Virus record (IMG/VR): IMGVR_UViG_3300028172_000069
Source of the DNA: a virus
Lineage: Duplodnaviria; Caudoviricetes
Reading direction: 5' to 3' (one strand)
DNA: 64,000 nt
In this document: positions 43,188 through 50,634 of the stretch, in pieces
Position numbering within the stretch: position 1 is the first letter of the stretch
Layout: every line of letters begins with the position of its first letter
Notes under the pieces: generated by a model
What the model saw: the letters and a program-made list of their open reading frames with translations, nothing else
Databases searched by the model: none
Told to the model about the DNA's origin: nothing
Made by a program: the position numbers and the translations under genes

Positions 43188-44213
43188 TTAGATGCTCTGG
43201 AGCGCCTTCAGGGTTTTCTCCATAGCCTTGGTAATGTCTTTAGGCATCGTCTTCCCAGTCATGTGGAATGCGAATGCCTCTGCAAAGAACTCGTCCGGGC
43301 TCACCATGGAGTATTCGGACAGATCAGGACGCGACTCCACGATCGTTGTACGCTTCGGCCACATCGAGGCGAACTTCTCGCTGTCCTCAAGATAGAGGAT
43401 TTCGAGGCTGCGGCCGTCGAGCTTGTGGTAGCGCTTGTAGTGGCTGAGCACTTCGCGGAACACCAGAGAGTCTTGATCTTCAAGCTCTTTATAGAATTCC
43501 TTGAACGTGCCGCTGAACTCGATCAGTTCACCAAGCATCGACTCCAACCGATCTTTCAGGATGCTGTTCAGCTCCAGACGCTTGTGGTAGAGCTTGATCC
43601 AGCGCGCCTTGTACGCACCAGGCACCATGCGGAACCAGACTGCGTGCGCGTACTCGTGGTACAGGACATACTCGTTGTACGCACGGTCGGTGAACGTGTC
43701 TGGGTACAGGTCGATGCCGTCAGTGAACTCGCTCATGGAGCGCTTGATGTGGTAGCAGCCTGCGTACTTTCCACGCTTCGGGAACAGCTTGATGCTGCCA
43801 AGCGGGAAGATGTTCAGGTTGTTCTCCAGCATCGCATCGTAGGTACGACGCAGCGCAGACTTGAGCGCTTTCTTCTCCAGGTCTTCCAGCACACGGAAGA
43901 AGTGCATCGGTCCGTACTTGGAATCGACGCTGGTGATGTATGGGTTGATCTTCACGCCGAACGCATTACCACCTGGCTTCGGGTTCAGACCGAGGTTGGC
44001 AACCAGTGTTTGGTCATCGTACTCAATGGTCTGGTGTTCTTCGTCAGCCAGAGTGCGGTCGATCACTGCGCGATTGCGCTCAGGGTTGATCGCGAGGCAC
44101 AGATGATGCTTGGTGCCAACACGCACGATGATGTAGCTGTCCTTCTGGATCGCCATCATCGCAGGAGACTTGGACTTCTTCTCCTTTTTCTTCTCTTTGT
44201 CTTTCTTGGCCAT
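43188..44213 (-). CDS. putative zincin-like metallopeptidase
   Basis: LYHEYAH (HExxH) plus downstream YSMVSPDEFFAEAF third-ligand motif. Confidence 0.6.
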   Translation of the reverse strand: MAKKDKEKKKEKKSKSPAMMAIQKDSYIIVRVGTKHHLCLAINPERNRAVIDRTLADEEHQTIEYDDQTLVANLGLNPKPGGNAFGVKINPYITSVDSKYGPMHFFRVLEDLEKKALKSALRRTYDAMLENNLNIFPLGSIKLFPKRGKYAGCYHIKRSMSEFTDGIDLYPDTFTDRAYNEYVLYHEYAHAVWFRMVPGAYKARWIKLYHKRLELNSILKDRLESMLGELIEFSGTFKEFYKELEDQDSLVFREVLSHYKRYHKLDGRSLEILYLEDSEKFASMWPKRTTIVESRPDLSEYSMVSPDEFFAEAFAFHMTGKTMPKDITKAMEKTLKALQSI

Positions 44214-44222
44214 GGGAATTCC

Positions 44223-44825
44223 TTACGAGCTGATCCAGCCACGTGGGTTGTTGGCAGCGCGAACGAGAATGTCCACACGCTCTTGCGGGGTTTGCCCGCG
44301 TGGATAGTAACCGCCACGTGGATCGTCACGGAAGTGCGCTTCACGGAACATGGCGATGCGGGCTTCGACAAACTCGTCGAGTGTCTTGATGCCGTACTGC
44401 GGCTCTGCAAGCGAGCGGCGGCTGTAACGCTCAACACTGCAATCGCTACTGTCCTGATCGTACCACATCAGAAAGTAGCTGTTGTCGGTTTCGTACAGTA
44501 CCAACCAGTCGTCGCCTTTGGCCTTGAAGTGGTGTTTCGCGGTTGCAGCATCTGCAAACGCTTGGTAGTTCTCGACAGTAGGTGCGATCCAGTTGGCATC
44601 GTTGTCTTCGTCATTGTCAACGCGCTCACCCTCTGGCTTTTCAAGACCGTAGCGCGCCAGCAGGAACGCGACGTGGTTCTTCCCGTAGTTTACCAGACCA
44701 TCGAGAAACGAACTAGCAACGTAGTCGTAGCGGGTGTCGAAGGCGATACCTCCATCGCGCATGATCTGCGCAGTTGGATAGTCGTATTCCTCCATTGGGA
44801 AATCTTTCAGCTTGTACTGAGACAT
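44223..44825 (-). CDS. hypothetical protein
   Basis: 200-aa ORF in the operon. Confidence 0.7.
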   Translation of the reverse strand: MSQYKLKDFPMEEYDYPTAQIMRDGGIAFDTRYDYVASSFLDGLVNYGKNHVAFLLARYGLEKPEGERVDNDEDNDANWIAPTVENYQAFADAATAKHHFKAKGDDWLVLYETDNSYFLMWYDQDSSDCSVERYSRRSLAEPQYGIKTLDEFVEARIAMFREAHFRDDPRGGYYPRGQTPQERVDILVRAANNPRGWISS

Positions 44826-44827
44826 GG

Positions 44828-45463
44828 TCAGCCCTCGGAACGAGTCTTGCCAACGATGCCGTAGTAACCGCCGATCGCTGGGATGAAGATTTGATTGTCG
44901 AACTTCTTGTGGTGCTCAAGCGGATCGAGGCTGAACATCACTTCACCTTCCGACGTTGGAGCACGCAGAGTACGCACGCCGTAGCGCTTGCAGTCGTCAG
45001 CCAAACGGATCACGATGAAACGGGGATCGACATGGGTCTGCTGGATTGCACGGCGAGCGATGTAGTCGTAGGCACCTTTGCCTAGGTCAACGAAGCGAGC
45101 GAACAGGTCGATCACATGCTTGTCTTCGCTGATGTGGTAGCCTTCTTTCGGGTCGAGGCCTTCGAACGCGAGGAAGGTGTACACGGCGGTCGCGCTTGGC
45201 GATGCCGAGTCGAAGTATTCTTCAACCAGCTTGGCCACACCTTCTGCGAACTCGATCTGGAGAGGCGTCAGTGCTGGACACTCAGCAGGACGCTCAAATT
45301 CTGGACGATCAACACCGCCGTCCATGATCTTGTCGTAGGCTGCGCGCAACTGTGCCTTGTTCGGATGATCGAACGTTGGGTACAACTCGGCGCAGGCTTG
45401 TTTGAAGTACAGCTCGGCCGTGTTCAGGTTGATCCGAGTGTACTTGGTCATCACGGTGCTCAT
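44828..45463 (-). CDS. hypothetical protein
   Basis: ATG 45463 overlaps the upstream stop. Confidence 0.7.
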   Translation of the reverse strand: MSTVMTKYTRINLNTAELYFKQACAELYPTFDHPNKAQLRAAYDKIMDGGVDRPEFERPAECPALTPLQIEFAEGVAKLVEEYFDSASPSATAVYTFLAFEGLDPKEGYHISEDKHVIDLFARFVDLGKGAYDYIARRAIQQTHVDPRFIVIRLADDCKRYGVRTLRAPTSEGEVMFSLDPLEHHKKFDNQIFIPAIGGYYGIVGKTRSEG

Positions 45464-46317
45464 TCGTCGTCCCACCCTGTATCTGGTTCGCTTACTGCTG
45501 GACCGTGAGTACGCACCAGCTCGTTGTAGATGCCGACTACAGACTTGTAGCCTTTGGTGTTCAGTGGGCTTTCGAGCAGATGCTCCTCGAAGCCAGCCTT
45601 GATGCCAGTGTCACCCAACTGAAACGGTTGGTGAACGTACACACGCACGCGCTCGAAATACTCCTCGAATGCCATGCGGCTGACTGCCTTCTGAATAGGC
45701 TTGTTCAGGTCAGCAGGGGTCGCACCCTGGAAGATTTTCAGAATCTTCGGTGTGAAGAAGATCGGGCAGTACGCAAGGTCACCGCCGTTCTCTGCACACC
45801 ACTTCTCGATCAAGCCCTTCTGGAAGGCTTTGTTGGACGAGAATGCGAGCGCACGGAATTCGTCTTCGCGCCCAGCGTAGTGCTGGCAGGCTTTGCGACT
45901 CAGGCAGTACAGGCTGTCTGCACCGTGACCAGTGAAGAACACGTCTTCCTTGATCTTGGGCAGCAGATGGTACATTGGCCAGAAGCACTCGAAGTCGGTC
46001 TTCGATCGGCAGCCAAACTCGGCGAGCTTCACGACGTCCTTCATCAAACGCTTCTGACCAGTGGGCAATGTGACTTTGGTAAACGGCAGTCCGAACTCTT
46101 TCGCAGTCAGTTGGGCGATGCGCACGTCGCGGCTCTCGACACCTTCGAGGTGGAAGCTGTACACATGCGGCTTCAACCCAGCCTCAAGGCAAGCGAACAG
46201 GGCGCAGTGACTGTCCACACCGCTGCTCATTGGCACGGCTACCTTCTTCACGCCGTACGACGCTGCCCGTTCAACAAGGGCTTTACGGAGCTTTCTGGCT
46301 CGCGTCTTCTGATCCAT
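45460..46317 (-). CDS. asparagine-synthetase-like N-type ATP pyrophosphatase (synthetase domain only)
   Basis: PP-loop MSSGVDS and FTGHGADSLY (compare AsnB LSGGLDS and LSGEGADE); no glutaminase domain. Confidence 0.75.
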   Translation of the reverse strand: MDQKTRARKLRKALVERAASYGVKKVAVPMSSGVDSHCALFACLEAGLKPHVYSFHLEGVESRDVRIAQLTAKEFGLPFTKVTLPTGQKRLMKDVVKLAEFGCRSKTDFECFWPMYHLLPKIKEDVFFTGHGADSLYCLSRKACQHYAGREDEFRALAFSSNKAFQKGLIEKWCAENGGDLAYCPIFFTPKILKIFQGATPADLNKPIQKAVSRMAFEEYFERVRVYVHQPFQLGDTGIKAGFEEHLLESPLNTKGYKSVVGIYNELVRTHGPAVSEPDTGWDDE

Positions 46318-46325
46318 GATCGCTC

Positions 46326-46778
46326 CTAGCGTTTCTTCTTGCCTTTGAATTTTACCCAGTGATTACCCTGGAGTCCGCCTTCAAGTTTGTGCAGGCGAAC
46401 AATGTCACCGTTGGACTTGATGCCCACGATGTAGTAACCCAGGTACTTGTCCTTCGTCACTTTAAGGAAGGCGGCTGGCGACGTGCGCAAAGGCATGCCG
46501 CTGATATCCTTCTTCTTGGTGATCGTGTACGCCACGTAATCGCTGTTGGTCCAATCGTCCAGCAACTTCATCATCACGTCTGGCATCACGAACTTCATAT
46601 CGTTGCCGTTGACGGCATAGAAGAACGTGTTGGCATCGCCCTTACCAACGGTGTACATGATGCCTGCTTGGGTTGCAGACACTTGCCACTGATGAAGGCG
46701 ACGCTCATTCGGGCTCAGGCCCTCTTCCATTTTCCACAGCGTTTTCACACGCTTGCGGAGCAATTGGAGTTCGCGCAT
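46326..46778 (-). CDS. hypothetical protein within the modification cluster
   Basis: 150-aa ORF between cmoA and the Asn-synthetase-like gene. Confidence 0.65.
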   Translation of the reverse strand: MRELQLLRKRVKTLWKMEEGLSPNERRLHQWQVSATQAGIMYTVGKGDANTFFYAVNGNDMKFVMPDVMMKLLDDWTNSDYVAYTITKKKDISGMPLRTSPAAFLKVTKDKYLGYYIVGIKSNGDIVRLHKLEGGLQGNHWVKFKGKKKR

Positions 46779-46781
46779 TGC

Positions 46782-47567
46782 TTAGTCCTTGATGGCGATG
46801 TAGCCCACGAAGTTGAGGTTGCGGAAGAACGTCTCGACGCTACGGAAGCCAGCGGTGCGCAGCATTTCGATATTGTTCTCATGGGTCACTGGGACCTGAA
46901 CACCTTCGAGGGCTGCACGCTTGCGCTCAATGTCTTCCCAGCTATAGCCGTTGTCGTGCTTGTACTCATGGTAGGCATCGACCAGCAGTTCTTGCATCAC
47001 TGCCGTGTTGCCCAGCACCTTCTCTACCATGAAGAAGGCACCGCCAGATTCCAGACCATCGTACACGCCCTTTAGGATGGACGGTCGGAAATTGATCGGC
47101 ACGAAGATCATGGTAAGGATCGACAGCACGAGGTTAGTCGGCAGCGTCTGCACTTTGTGGAATTCCACACTGCCACTCATGTGCGCACTCGGCCAGCGAA
47201 TGGCGTCGGCAATCTCTTTGGCCTTCTTGCGCAGGTCGTAGCTGCACGGGTGTACGTTGAACTGGTCGGCGAAGCGCCCACGCATTTCTTCAAGCATCGG
47301 GTCCGAGATTTCGCTCAGATAGAACTGGGCTTCTGGGAACGCACCAATGAACTTGGCACTCGCTTCACCGCGGCTTGCACCGAGGTCAATGACGTTGCAC
47401 GGTGTCTTGACGAAGTTCTTGCCCAGTCGCCACACCAATTCACGCATCGAACCATAGCCGGGGATGCTGCGCTCCAGCATGTTGTCAAACTTCTTGGCGA
47501 CGTCCTCGTTGAACTCCCACTTCTGGCCGGGTACGTGATCGTCGCGCAGGGTTTCGATTGGTTGCAT
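46782..47567 (-). CDS. cmoA: carboxy-S-adenosylmethionine synthase (CmoA-like)
   Basis: WEFNEDVAKKFDNMLERSIPGY, VIDLGASRG, EKV and IERKRAALEGV match E. coli CmoA ([22 protein letters not shown] ... ISQKRSMLENV), including the Arg that binds the carboxylate. Confidence 0.88.
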   Translation of the reverse strand: MQPIETLRDDHVPGQKWEFNEDVAKKFDNMLERSIPGYGSMRELVWRLGKNFVKTPCNVIDLGASRGEASAKFIGAFPEAQFYLSEISDPMLEEMRGRFADQFNVHPCSYDLRKKAKEIADAIRWPSAHMSGSVEFHKVQTLPTNLVLSILTMIFVPINFRPSILKGVYDGLESGGAFFMVEKVLGNTAVMQELLVDAYHEYKHDNGYSWEDIERKRAALEGVQVPVTHENNIEMLRTAGFRSVETFFRNLNFVGYIAIKD

Positions 47568-47629
47568 GTCCGTAACTCCATGTTTGATGCCCATGTGGGC
47601 TTACTGGTCATTTACAGTTTCAAGGCCAC

Positions 47630-47656
47630 AAAAAGGGAGCGCGATGGCTCCCTTTG
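47630..47656 (-). terminator. terminator-like hairpin between the MTase and cmoA
   Basis: AAAGGGAGC-catcgc-GCTCCCTTTT. Confidence 0.65.
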
Positions 47657-47664
47657 TGCGAGGC

Positions 47665-48678
47665 TTACAGCTTTTCGAGGATATTGCGGCGAAGCTCGCG
47701 GCAAACGTGGTACATCATGAGCGGTGGTACCGAGCGGCCGATGCGCTCAAACTGCTGCTTGTAGGTACCAGTGAAGATGAAGTCTTCGGGGAAGGTGAAG
47801 ATGGTCTTCAACTCGTCGATGGTGTACTTACGGCGCTCACCGCTCAGCGTCTCGATGAATCCACCTGAGGAGAATCCAGCAGTCTCGCTGTTGGTGCCAT
47901 CCGAAGCCACGATTGTAGGTGACGGGATCGACGCAGGCACGTACTTCAGGTCACCCTTGTGCTTCGACTTCAGGTACGCCACGTGAGGTAGAACGTCATT
48001 CACGTTGATGGCATACTTGTGCGGCGTTGGGAATACAGGGTCGAAACCTTTCTTCACCAGATCGTCACGCACGCCGACGAAGATCACACGCTCACGGGCT
48101 TGCGCCACACCAAGGTATGCAGCGTTGAGCACTTGCGCACGCACGCTGTAACCGATCGCCTTCAAGTCACGGAGAATTTCGACGAAGTAGCCTTTCGCGT
48201 CACCCTCGACCATGCCTTTGACATTCTCGCAAACAAATACCTTCGGCATGAAGGCTTCCAGCTTGCGCATTTCCTCGTAGAAGAGGTCGTCTGTGCGCTG
48301 GTAGACGTTCTCGCTGTACAGCTTCTCCTTGCCCCAGTCATCACTGCCAGTACCAGACGTGGAGAATGACTTGCACGGTGGGCTACCTTCCGAGAAGTCG
48401 AGCTGGCCACGTTTCAGGCCAAGCTCTTTGCGAATGGCTGCCCAGTCAACCTTGCGAATGTCTTCGCCGATGACCATGGTGCCTTTGTGGTTCTTCTGGT
48501 AGGTTTCGATGGCCGGCTTGATGAACTCGGTAGCCGCGAGCACTTGGATGCCCGCCATCTTCACGCCAGTAGACGAGCCGCCACAGCCACTGAAAGAACT
48601 GATGCCTTTGAAGTGCTTGGGCAGCGCGTTGATCTTCTTCATCGAAGGGATCTTGGGAATGCGTTTCTCATTGGCCAT
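47665..48678 (-). CDS. C5-cytosine DNA methyltransferase-fold enzyme, probable carboxymethyltransferase
   Basis: FSGCGG (I), GSPPCKSFS (IV), ENV (VI), QARERVIFVG (VIII); motif X reads IGRSVPP instead of GNSV. Confidence 0.88.
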   Translation of the reverse strand: MANEKRIPKIPSMKKINALPKHFKGISSFSGCGGSSTGVKMAGIQVLAATEFIKPAIETYQKNHKGTMVIGEDIRKVDWAAIRKELGLKRGQLDFSEGSPPCKSFSTSGTGSDDWGKEKLYSENVYQRTDDLFYEEMRKLEAFMPKVFVCENVKGMVEGDAKGYFVEILRDLKAIGYSVRAQVLNAAYLGVAQARERVIFVGVRDDLVKKGFDPVFPTPHKYAINVNDVLPHVAYLKSKHKGDLKYVPASIPSPTIVASDGTNSETAGFSSGGFIETLSGERRKYTIDELKTIFTFPEDFIFTGTYKQQFERIGRSVPPLMMYHVCRELRRNILEKL

Positions 48679-48688
48679 GGCTGCGTCC

Positions 48689-49495
48689 TTACTTCTTTTT
48701 CTTCGCTGGCATTTTCAGCTCTGTTTTCTTCGGAGCCGCGAGCTTGGATTTCTTGGGCTTGTCACCCTTGTCCTTACTCTTGACCTTCTCTTTGTCTTTC
48801 GACTTTTCCTTCTTGCCGTCTTTCTCTTTCAGCTTGAGCTTCGGAGCTTTCGGCTCAGCCTTGGCCGCAGGCTGCGACTTGGCACTGGTGTTGAACTGGA
48901 ATTTGCACTTCGGGCAGCAATGCTCGAACTCGAAGCTGTCCTCGCCGAACTCTTGGAACGACTCCTTGCCTTCGCCATCGTTGTCGATTTCGCGACCTTT
49001 GGAGTCGAGCGTTGGCATCTTTGGCATCAAGCCACGCAGGCTCAGTGGGTCGATACCCAGAACGTTCACGTCGAACGACTTGCCGGCGTCGAGCTTCTCC
49101 AGCATAACGCCCAGCTTGGTACGGTCGAAGTCGCCACCGTGCGCGTTCGCTGCGATGTTGGCCGCCATCTCGGATTTCTTGTCGCTCCAGTCCACGATGC
49201 GTAGTGGGATACGGATTTCGCCGCTCGCAGTCTTCGCAACGATGTGACCTTCTGCAACGGTACCGAAGGCGTCCTTCACAGGCTTTGTGACGATCTTGGT
49301 CTTGACGTCCTTACCGCGCAGACGCTTCAAGCGCTGGTGACCGGAAATCAGGTTCTGGGTCTTCTTGTTGAAGACGACGCCGGACAGGTCACCGTAGGTA
49401 GTCATGGACAGGTGCAGGTTGTCCAGTCGCTTTTCACTGATGACACGCGGGTTATACTTGGCCTCTTTGAGGTCCTTGATGGTCAATTCTGCCAT
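48689..49495 (-). CDS. ParB/Srx-like domain protein with Cys motif and Lys-rich tail
   Basis: YNPR...LISGHQRL ParB-N motifs; HCCPKCKFQF. Confidence 0.8.
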   Translation of the reverse strand: MAELTIKDLKEAKYNPRVISEKRLDNLHLSMTTYGDLSGVVFNKKTQNLISGHQRLKRLRGKDVKTKIVTKPVKDAFGTVAEGHIVAKTASGEIRIPLRIVDWSDKKSEMAANIAANAHGGDFDRTKLGVMLEKLDAGKSFDVNVLGIDPLSLRGLMPKMPTLDSKGREIDNDGEGKESFQEFGEDSFEFEHCCPKCKFQFNTSAKSQPAAKAEPKAPKLKLKEKDGKKEKSKDKEKVKSKDKGDKPKKSKLAAPKKTELKMPAKKKK

Positions 49496-49510
49496 TTGCT
49501 TAATAGCCTG

Positions 49511-49744
49511 TTAGTTCTTGGGAATTGGGTAGCAGTCGGTCGCGACACCGTCCGTGCCAGTTGCGATGAAACACTCGATGCCGGGCCGCGGCGAGTAAAC
49601 TTGCTTTTGCACGGAAGTCGCTGCCATCCAACGACTCCATGCAGTGAACCCGTAGATCATCAACATGATGAATACTACCACGCCCGCAACAGCCAGAAGG
49701 ATGAGGGCGAACGTTTTACGGTCGTTTTGTGCTGAATGTGCCAT
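49511..49744 (-). CDS. small membrane protein
   Basis: One hydrophobic helix; preceded by the ACTGTAAA motif. Confidence 0.65.
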   Translation of the reverse strand: MAHSAQNDRKTFALILLAVAGVVVFIMLMIYGFTAWSRWMAATSVQKQVYSPRPGIECFIATGTDGVATDCYPIPKN

Positions 49745-49778
49745 AGCATTCTCCAGTGGTTTGTCTGGAGTTTACAGT

Positions 49779-50282
49779 TTAGATCACCACTCCGAGTTCC
49801 TCACGCATGATGCGCAGGCACTCATCCTTCTGCATGAACATCCAGCGCTTCGGTAACGGGATGCGCTTACCAGAGCCCGTCATGAGCAGCACGCAGAACT
49901 TGAAGCCGCGCTCTTGGCATGCCTTGGCCTTAGCCTTGTTCATGCTCCAGCCGCGCTTCTTGTTGTTGATCAGGCCCATCGTTGCCTTCGACTTCACTTC
50001 CACGATGATGTTGTGGTTGCGAATGAAGATATCAGGCATGTAGGTACGCCAGCGCTTGCCGTACTTGTAGCGAATGTTCAGGGCGTTACCCATTTCGCAC
50101 TCGGTACGAATGTCGGCCGGGTCGAATCCGCCTTTCTCGACAAGGTACTCCAGCGCTTGTCGCTCGTAGCCTTGAACCAGCAGTTGCCGACCGTGGAACT
50201 CATAGTGGTACTGCTTGTACTTCTCGGAACGCTTCTGTCTGCGTTTCTTCATCGGTGCGTTGTTTCCAAACAGACCTTGCAT
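49779..50282 (-). CDS. PD-(D/E)xK endonuclease (TnsA-N / T4 gp4-like)
   Basis: GYE...YMPDIFI...IVEVKS. Confidence 0.7.
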   Translation of the reverse strand: MQGLFGNNAPMKKRRQKRSEKYKQYHYEFHGRQLLVQGYERQALEYLVEKGGFDPADIRTECEMGNALNIRYKYGKRWRTYMPDIFIRNHNIIVEVKSKATMGLINNKKRGWSMNKAKAKACQERGFKFCVLLMTGSGKRIPLPKRWMFMQKDECLRIMREELGVVI

Positions 50283-50340
50283 ACGGTAACCTCCCAGTCA
50301 ATGCTGGAAAAATTACCAAGGGAAATGAAAACGGGAACCA

Positions 50341-50634
50341 CTAGGGCTCCCGTATTGCCATTGCGCGTATGGCACTGCGCAGTCTGACTGGATCATTGCT
50401 ATGTACAGGGTTCTCGAAGAACTCGCGCAGTGGTTCCTTGTACGGTCCACGTGCGAAGAACACCAGCACGGTATCTGTCACTTGGATGCGCACGTTGTCG
50501 TGCGGAGCCTTGCGCTTGAACGTAGTTGCTGACTGGTCGAACTCACCAATCACTGTACCCATATCGTCAGCCAGCGTGGTCAGTTTCGAGAACACCTCCG
50601 CTGCTCTCTCGGAGGAAGGAAACAAGTTCGTCAT
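50341..50634 (-). CDS. hypothetical protein
   Basis: 97-aa ORF followed by a hairpin. Confidence 0.55.
   Translation of the reverse strand: MTNLFPSSERAAEVFSKLTTLADDMGTVIGEFDQSATTFKRKAPHDNVRIQVTDTVLVFFARGPYKEPLREFFENPVHSNDPVRLRSAIRAMAIREP

Follow-up and report, generated by a model that had tools for sequence, protein, structure and literature searches.

Gene layout

The window analysed here is a stretch of 64,000 nucleotides (nt) from IMG/VR virus record IMGVR_UViG_3300028172_000069 (Caudoviricetes), a PaBG-like jumbo Pseudomonas phage, and our subject is a cluster of five minus-strand genes at positions 45460-49495 that forms a candidate operon for DNA hypermodification. In order of reading, the genes encode a ParB-fold protein (48689-49495, 268 amino acids (aa)), a cytosine C5-methyltransferase (C5-MTase) homolog that is a candidate CmoX-type DNA cytosine C5-carboxymethyltransferase (47665-48678, 337 aa), a probable CmoA-type synthase of carboxy-S-adenosylmethionine (Cx-SAM) (46782-47594, 270 aa), a basic 150-aa protein that we call ORF150 after its open reading frame (ORF) (46326-46778), and a CmoY-type ATP-dependent amide ligase (45460-46317, 285 aa). 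An earlier note, made from the sequence, had described such a cluster headed by the ParB gene and with the ligase two genes past CmoA, and the ORFs lie exactly where it placed them. The genes are tightly packed and co-directional, with successive gaps of 10, 70, 3 and 8 nt, and the 3' end of the ligase gene overlaps the next gene downstream by 16 nt. The sole strong terminator-like site near the cluster is upstream of it, at 50353-50331, which is consistent with the five genes forming one transcription unit.

The nearest record is that of the Pseudomonas jumbo phage PaBG, with 76% nucleotide identity over the cluster, identical gene order and a CmoX protein that is 89% identical. Near-identical contigs are also present in IMG/VR and in soil metagenomes. 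Coverage of the region 44000-50600 is very high in 14 soil metatranscriptome libraries; in the four runs examined the operon copies sit on contigs of 35-174 kb, so that transcription is indistinguishable from DNA carry-over, though the phage is abundant there.

The published system

Yang et al. (Nat Commun 2025, PMC12783734) demonstrated the CmoA/CmoX/CmoY system experimentally in Synechococcus phage S-B43. There CmoA makes Cx-SAM, and SpCmoX forms 5-carboxymethylcytosine at GC sites; the wild-type enzyme accepts Cx-SAM only and its R350N mutant is dead. SpCmoY then ligates glycine to the carboxymethyl group at the expense of ATP, and the glycine amide produced by CmoX and CmoY was found in Escherichia coli, in vitro and in S-B43 virion DNA. 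Their survey listed 5,615 CmoX candidates (defined by an SPPC motif plus an Arg in motif X), 4,257 CmoA proteins and 2,251 ligases, and counted 1,660 ParB-domain (ParBc) proteins among the CmoX contigs. The parts of the text and supplements of that paper that could be searched contain no mention of Pseudomonas, Erwinia, jumbo phages, chorismate mutase, DUF1611 or inteins.

The carboxymethyltransferase candidate

The C5-MTase homolog matches PF00145 (E 1.5e-49) and has the family motifs F29xGxGG (motif I), S99-P-P-C102 (catalytic; Cys102 codon at 48373-48375), E151-N-V and Q193xRxR197. The earlier note had pointed to a motif X that reads GRSVPP in place of GNSV, and the codon at 47734-47736 is indeed CGC, encoding R315. 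The ordinary methyltransferase M.HaeIII has IGNAVP here, with Asn at the position aligned to R315. The closest solved structure is that of SpCmoX (8YF3, E 1e-57), in which ERVGRMVPP aligns to ERIGRSVPP of the window and R350 to R315. Both features by which Yang et al. recognized CmoX, SPPC and the motif X Arg, are thus present, and the Arg is kept in every CmoA-linked MTase homolog that we inspected. A precedent, cited by Yang et al., is M.MpeI N374K, where replacement of the motif X Asn by a basic residue likewise enables a C5-MTase fold to use Cx-SAM; it is a CpG methyltransferase engineered to have Lys, whereas the window's enzyme occurs naturally, with Arg, and is encoded together with the cofactor synthase.

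Two features of CmoX homologs elsewhere are recorded here, using L-numbers for the individual phage or metagenome loci compared (coordinates following an L-number belong to that locus). The homologs in Erwinia phage Yoloswag (gp43; L006:2663-4771, plus strand) and in an IMG/VR contig (L021:7347-9644, plus strand) are 700-766 aa long, with a Hint/intein domain inserted after about residue 96-128, adjoining the catalytic SPPC. In the Erwinia phages CmoX lies ~15 kb away from CmoA and the ligase.

The probable Cx-SAM synthase

The likelier start of the CmoA homolog is the ATG at 47567, which is preceded by GGAG and gives a protein of 261 aa. Over its full length it matches solved CmoA structures (1im8, E 1e-27; 4gek, E 1e-25). 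The earlier note had claimed that it keeps the carboxylate-binding Arg, and this held up: its IERKR aligns to ISQKR of E. coli CmoA, and in the alignment to 4gek R226 (codon 46917-46919) is the equivalent of Arg199, which in E. coli CmoA forms a salt bridge to the Cx-SAM carboxylate (PMC3663124). In the same alignment Y47, D70, G72 and S74 take the places of Tyr39, Asp62, Gly64 and Ser66, which bind the cofactor (PMC3663124). These four residues are invariant among 57 relatives, all of which have Arg or Lys at position 226. The window thus has the bacterial-type Arg where SpCmoA of S-B43 (L002:5255-5950, plus strand), which is experimentally active, has Glu, with a Lys two residues on.

In bacteria CmoA serves, with CmoB, the pathway to uridine 5-oxyacetic acid at tRNA position 34 (cmo5U34). 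Conversion of S-adenosylmethionine (SAM) and prephenate to Cx-SAM and the Arg199 carboxylate contact are common to that pathway and the predicted one here, but the bacterial pathway targets tRNA, whereas the consumer of Cx-SAM in the window is a DNA C5-MTase homolog, and no CmoB (PF08003) was found in the nearest record of the window's phage, a record that is 44% complete.

A related module (ParB-CmoX-CmoA-CmoY-ORF150) encodes a chorismate mutase domain (PF01817) fused to the N-terminus of CmoA (protein P0146, L014:8001-9050, plus strand). The fusion suggests that prephenate supply can be limiting and that the phage in question produces prephenate for Cx-SAM synthesis itself; the chorismate mutase domain has no counterpart in the window.

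The ligase

The ligase is a homolog of the C-terminal domain of AsnB, covered by the synthetase part alone of PF00733 (E 8e-7) and likewise by the synthetase half of TIGR01536; its PP-loop is S31-S-G-V-D-S36 (46210-46227). The description of it in the earlier note as a glutaminase-less, Asn-synthetase-like ATP pyrophosphatase is therefore borne out. It belongs to phrog_26038 (E 4e-117) and is 33% identical to SpCmoY (E 2e-26). The C-terminal domains of asparagine synthetase B and beta-lactam synthetase have the same SxGxDS PP-loop and the same logic of adenylation followed by amidation, but the window protein, at ~285 aa, lacks the N-terminal glutaminase domain of asparagine synthetase B, and its predicted substrate is a carboxylate on DNA.

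Proposed pathway

We conclude that the cluster is probably the DNA-hypermodification operon of a PaBG-like jumbo phage and a member of the published CmoA/CmoX/CmoY system. What we observed is homology, catalytic motifs and conserved gene linkage; the three chemical steps are drawn from the S-B43 biochemistry. CmoA would convert SAM and prephenate to Cx-SAM. Cys102 of CmoX would attack C6 of a flipped-out cytosine and the carboxymethyl group of Cx-SAM would pass to C5, the carboxylate being held by Arg315. The PP-loop ligase CmoY would adenylate the 5-carboxymethyl group and couple an amine to it, and the resulting amide-linked hypermodified cytosine may shield phage DNA against host nucleases. 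The ParB-fold protein would assist the enzymes on duplex DNA, by analogy to ParB-dependent phage thymine dioxygenases, and ORF150 may be a further DNA-directed accessory. The path from SAM through Cx-SAM and 5-carboxymethylcytosine to an amide is that proposed in the earlier note, and the gene-for-gene match to S-B43 lends it support. Common to the two phages are the three enzymes, a CmoX with SPPC and Arg, an adjacent CmoA, a glutaminase-less AsnB-like ligase homologous to SpCmoY, and an association with ParB domains. They differ in that S-B43 is a T4-like cyanophage, with another gene order, whereas the window, from a jumbo Pseudomonas phage, has a separate ParB gene and ORF150.

Several points weigh against this conclusion or against carrying the S-B43 details over. 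For the window's phage and PaBG the support is wholly one of homology. The CmoA homolog scores 130 bits against TIGR00740 (E 1e-37), short of the equivalog cut-off of 193, and belongs to a divergent phage clade. The target-recognition region of CmoX is not alignable with that of SpCmoX, so the GC specificity is not transferable. The ligase falls outside the clade of the glycine ligase SpCmoY. SpCmoX and SpCmoY are active without ParB or ORF150, so neither of these is required for the chemistry as such, and a predicted complex of CmoA with ORF150 scored 0.04, which gives no answer and is evidence in neither direction.

The predicted amide

A maximum-likelihood tree of 28 ligases places those of the ORF150-carrying phages in at least three clades. 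The first holds the window, PaBG, one Erwinia group and one PALP-linked ligase; the second, Erwinia phage Y3 and several ligases linked to DUF1611 or chorismate mutase; the third, starred at 99/99, SpCmoY together with DUF1611-linked ligases of other Erwinia phages. Within a single phage lineage, then, ligases of one clade have been exchanged for those of another, suggesting that several different cytosine amides await identification.

Given the separate clade and an identity to SpCmoY of only 33%, glycine is not to be assumed as the amine in the window's phage. The final base may be an amide other than the published glycine one, either carbamoylmethylcytosine from free ammonia or another amino-acid or amine conjugate, and we consider this only a little short of an even chance. 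In its favour are the grouping of the window ligase with those of PaBG and the Erwinia group and with a PALP-linked ligase, apart from the SpCmoY clade, and the ligase clusters of Yang et al., which differ in pocket residues and whose amines are unassigned (PMC12783734); varied chemistry is also suggested by the genes for DUF1611, pyridoxal phosphate (PLP)-dependent and oxygenase proteins beside the ligases of relatives. On the other side, the window ligase and SpCmoY have many basic and polar residues in common, and neither the window nor PaBG has an additional gene for making an amine, an observation in favour of a common metabolite, for example glycine.

The extra enzymes of relatives are DUF1611 proteins (in many relatives, Erwinia phages among them), a PLP-dependent PALP enzyme and an annotated oxygenase, all absent from the window and PaBG. 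They are inserted beside the ligase at L007:5429-6457, L008:6075-7088, L012:3917-4975, L010:6142-7269 and L003:7038-7676, and may make the amine or tailor it further.

The ParB-fold protein

This protein belongs to phrog_620 (E 6e-33), and its match to Pfam ParB_N is below threshold (E 0.14). Its AlphaFold2 (AF2) model has a predicted local distance difference test (pLDDT) value of 85-92 over residues 1-130, and the top 20+ PDB matches found with Foldseek are all ParB, KorB, Noc or PadC, at probability 1.00. An N-terminal ParB/Srx-type domain is followed by a clade-specific beta-hairpin insert and a conserved C-terminal CPxC element, and the window protein has a Lys-rich tail. The motifs NPR (49445-49453) and GHQR (49331-49342) are invariant in an alignment with 19 relatives, and the gene is conserved beside CmoX in diverged loci.

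O'Toole et al. (PNAS 2026, PMC13229309) described the pair 5mYOX176/ParB176, in which activation of a phage thymine dioxygenase by a ParB-like protein is specific to duplex DNA. There, as here, a stand-alone ParB-fold protein is encoded beside an enzyme for post-replicative modification of phage DNA bases; 5mYOX176, however, is an iron/2-oxoglutarate dioxygenase that acts on T and needs ParB for its activity on duplex DNA, whereas the partner in the window is a C5-MTase-fold enzyme, and SpCmoX works alone. By this analogy, and speculatively, the ParB-fold protein most likely helps the modifying enzymes to act on duplex DNA.

ORF150: sequence and fold

The core of the cluster is a known, published system, and ORF150 is the one part for which the literature text that was searched holds no description. 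Of the three components that the earlier note had thought might be new, it is also the one that keeps this standing, since a ligase of this kind (CmoY) is characterized, and the ParB association noted, in PMC12783734.

ORF150 corresponds to phrog_23597, a uniformly basic family (isoelectric point (pI) 9.0-10.1; 9.9 in the window) with 61 detectable relatives among 1.84 billion representatives. It has a conserved loop GKG(G/D)ANT (46626-46646) and the invariant residues K46, T51, P66 and W141. No match was found in Pfam or NCBIfam, and the language-model neighbours were uninformative. The AF2 model is of high confidence (pLDDT 96), and its comparison with PDB, AFDB clusters, Swiss-Prot, BFVD and ESM Atlas, and with VIA-align in wide and second-look modes, gave no fold match above noise, the BFVD search returning the PaBG ortholog alone.

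Several assignments were considered. The best matches to a PUR/Whirly fold (Pur-alpha, Z 6.3, root-mean-square deviation 3.2 A over 78 residues; plp-1, E 0.29) are in the noise range of the tools, and the recurrence of such weak matches between the model and PUR/Whirly-type nucleic-acid binders is a lead only. The label 'YwqK antitoxin' that JGI gives to one homolog and the Big_13 Ig repeats found with phmmer look like compositional matches. A role as a chorismate mutase supplying prephenate had no supporting structural match.

ORF150: genomic association

The strongest evidence on ORF150 is its genomic association. It is present in 53 INPHARED phage records; a search with the ligase found 58, with equal tallies for Erwinia, Pseudomonas, Dickeya and Yersinia phages plus five other phages, so that the phages with ORF150 seem all to be among those with the ligase. 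In 6/6 informative metagenomic contigs, which are diverged (ORF150 identities of 24-40%), the gene lies inside the ParB-CmoX(Arg)-CmoA-CmoY set, with a different gene order each time and often translationally coupled to CmoA or CmoY; the five-gene set recurs, with its order shuffled, in contigs whose CmoX is just 48-58% identical. In a survey of gene neighbourhoods around CmoA homologs, a check suggested in the earlier note, ORF150 was found in 14 of 80 CmoA-centred IMG/VR loci, all 14 of which have the ligase, and in none of the 53 loci that have no ligase. Conversely, CmoA and CmoY lie within 10 kb in 28 of 30 ORF150-centred IMG/VR loci.

The other two (L123 and L120) have ParB and DNA glycosyltransferases in place of Cmo genes. 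At L123:6312-10393 and L120:9609-17341 the genes for ORF150 and ParB-like proteins are mixed in among those for TET-associated glycosyltransferases (PF20691), sugar epimerases, a dTDP-sugar RmlA/RmlC-like set and an N6/N4 methyltransferase. The genomic position is the same, and the group has the look of a DNA-hypermodification module that works by glycosylation, which suggests that ORF150 and ParB are retained when one modification chemistry gives way to another.

Speculatively, ORF150 is most likely a DNA-directed accessory factor and not a catalyst. That ORF150 and ParB are chemistry-independent, DNA-directed accessories, as opposed to backbone genes of the lineage, has in our estimate somewhat better than even odds. 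As such an accessory ORF150 might act on duplex DNA by opening or presenting it, might tag the phage's DNA, or might serve as a reader of the modified base. The fuller proposition, in which ORF150, with a new fold, and ParB form an accessory pair serving both Cx-SAM/amide and glycosyltransferase modules while the window's ligase, from outside the glycine clade, yields an undescribed cytosine amide, is unlikely to hold in all its parts.

All ORF150 carriers are related jumbo phages, which makes phylogenetic inertia possible. ORF150, and perhaps the ParB-like gene, could then be a backbone gene of the jumbo lineage at a hot spot for insertion of modification genes, upstream of a clamp loader and SbcCD, with no role in modification. 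We think this possible but rather doubtful. It accords with the size and kinship of every carrier found, a large phage contig (mostly >150 kb) related to PaBG or to the Erwinia jumbo phages, with the absence of ORF150 from Cmo modules elsewhere (S-B43, a Salmonella phage, a Staphylococcus phage and many IMG/VR contigs), with its retention in L120 and L123, where Cmo genes are absent, and with the recurring flanks of its modules, a TnsA-like endonuclease, a peptidase and the clamp loader. Yet the surroundings of ORF150 are reshuffled while it stays always within the module, after CmoA or CmoY or heading the cluster, often spaced 2-14 nt from its module neighbours or overlapping them by 4 nt. 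In 50,697 phage records and the 30 IMG/VR loci every occurrence of it was accompanied by DNA-hypermodification genes, and even in the two loci without Cmo genes it is interleaved with ParB and DNA glycosyltransferases.

Annotation and significance

The annotation of PaBG, which names a 'DNA cytosine methylase', a 'tRNA (cmo5U34)-methyltransferase' and an 'asparagine synthase', would fit functionally unrelated genes, namely an ordinary 5-methylcytosine methyltransferase, a CmoA that raises cmo5U synthesis in host tRNA and an asparagine-synthetase-like enzyme of metabolism, but this is highly improbable given that all CmoA-linked MTases examined keep the motif X Arg, which in S-B43 excludes SAM, that CmoB was not found in the nearest record (44% complete), that CmoX, CmoA and the ligase remain linked through wide divergence and reshuffling, and that the ligase has no glutaminase domain and is homologous to a proven ligase of 5-carboxymethylcytosine in DNA.

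With the cluster read as a hypermodification operon, the three PaBG genes annotated as 'DNA cytosine methylase', 'tRNA methyltransferase' and 'asparagine synthase' would be re-annotated, and carboxymethylcytosine hypermodification would extend from a cyanophage to PaBG-type Pseudomonas jumbo phages and to a large group of Erwinia, Dickeya and Yersinia jumbo phages. These phages are cultivable, so the chemistry is directly testable on virion DNA. The analysis also flags ORF150 as an undescribed, module-linked protein without a recognized fold.

Neighbouring genes and other CmoA loci

The two genes downstream of the cluster (44828-45475 and 44223-44825) were rejected as module members; they occur in close relatives only. 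Just upstream of the module, at 49779-50282 on the minus strand, is a gene for a TnsA-like/Vsr-type endonuclease (DUF7487, PF08722), found in the same place in PaBG and in locus L007, and its product might be a nuclease that leaves modified DNA uncut.

Yang et al. found no candidates for a non-C5 Cx-SAM-dependent DNA carboxymethyltransferase (PMC12783734). In 29 of the 80 CmoA-centred phage loci CmoA is immediately preceded by a gene for a protein of 517-560 aa (phrog_5475; for example L064:8443-9993 and L085:7522-9111, both plus strand), with a ParB N-domain and a region of ~400 aa that bears the invariant motifs DFGAG (class-I methyltransferase-like), FEPY and NSVPF. This protein and CmoX are mutually exclusive in the 80 loci: the 29 loci with phrog_5475 have neither CmoX nor CmoY, and no CmoX locus has the phrog_5475 protein. 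It is a candidate for a non-C5, undescribed Cx-SAM-dependent DNA-modifying enzyme.

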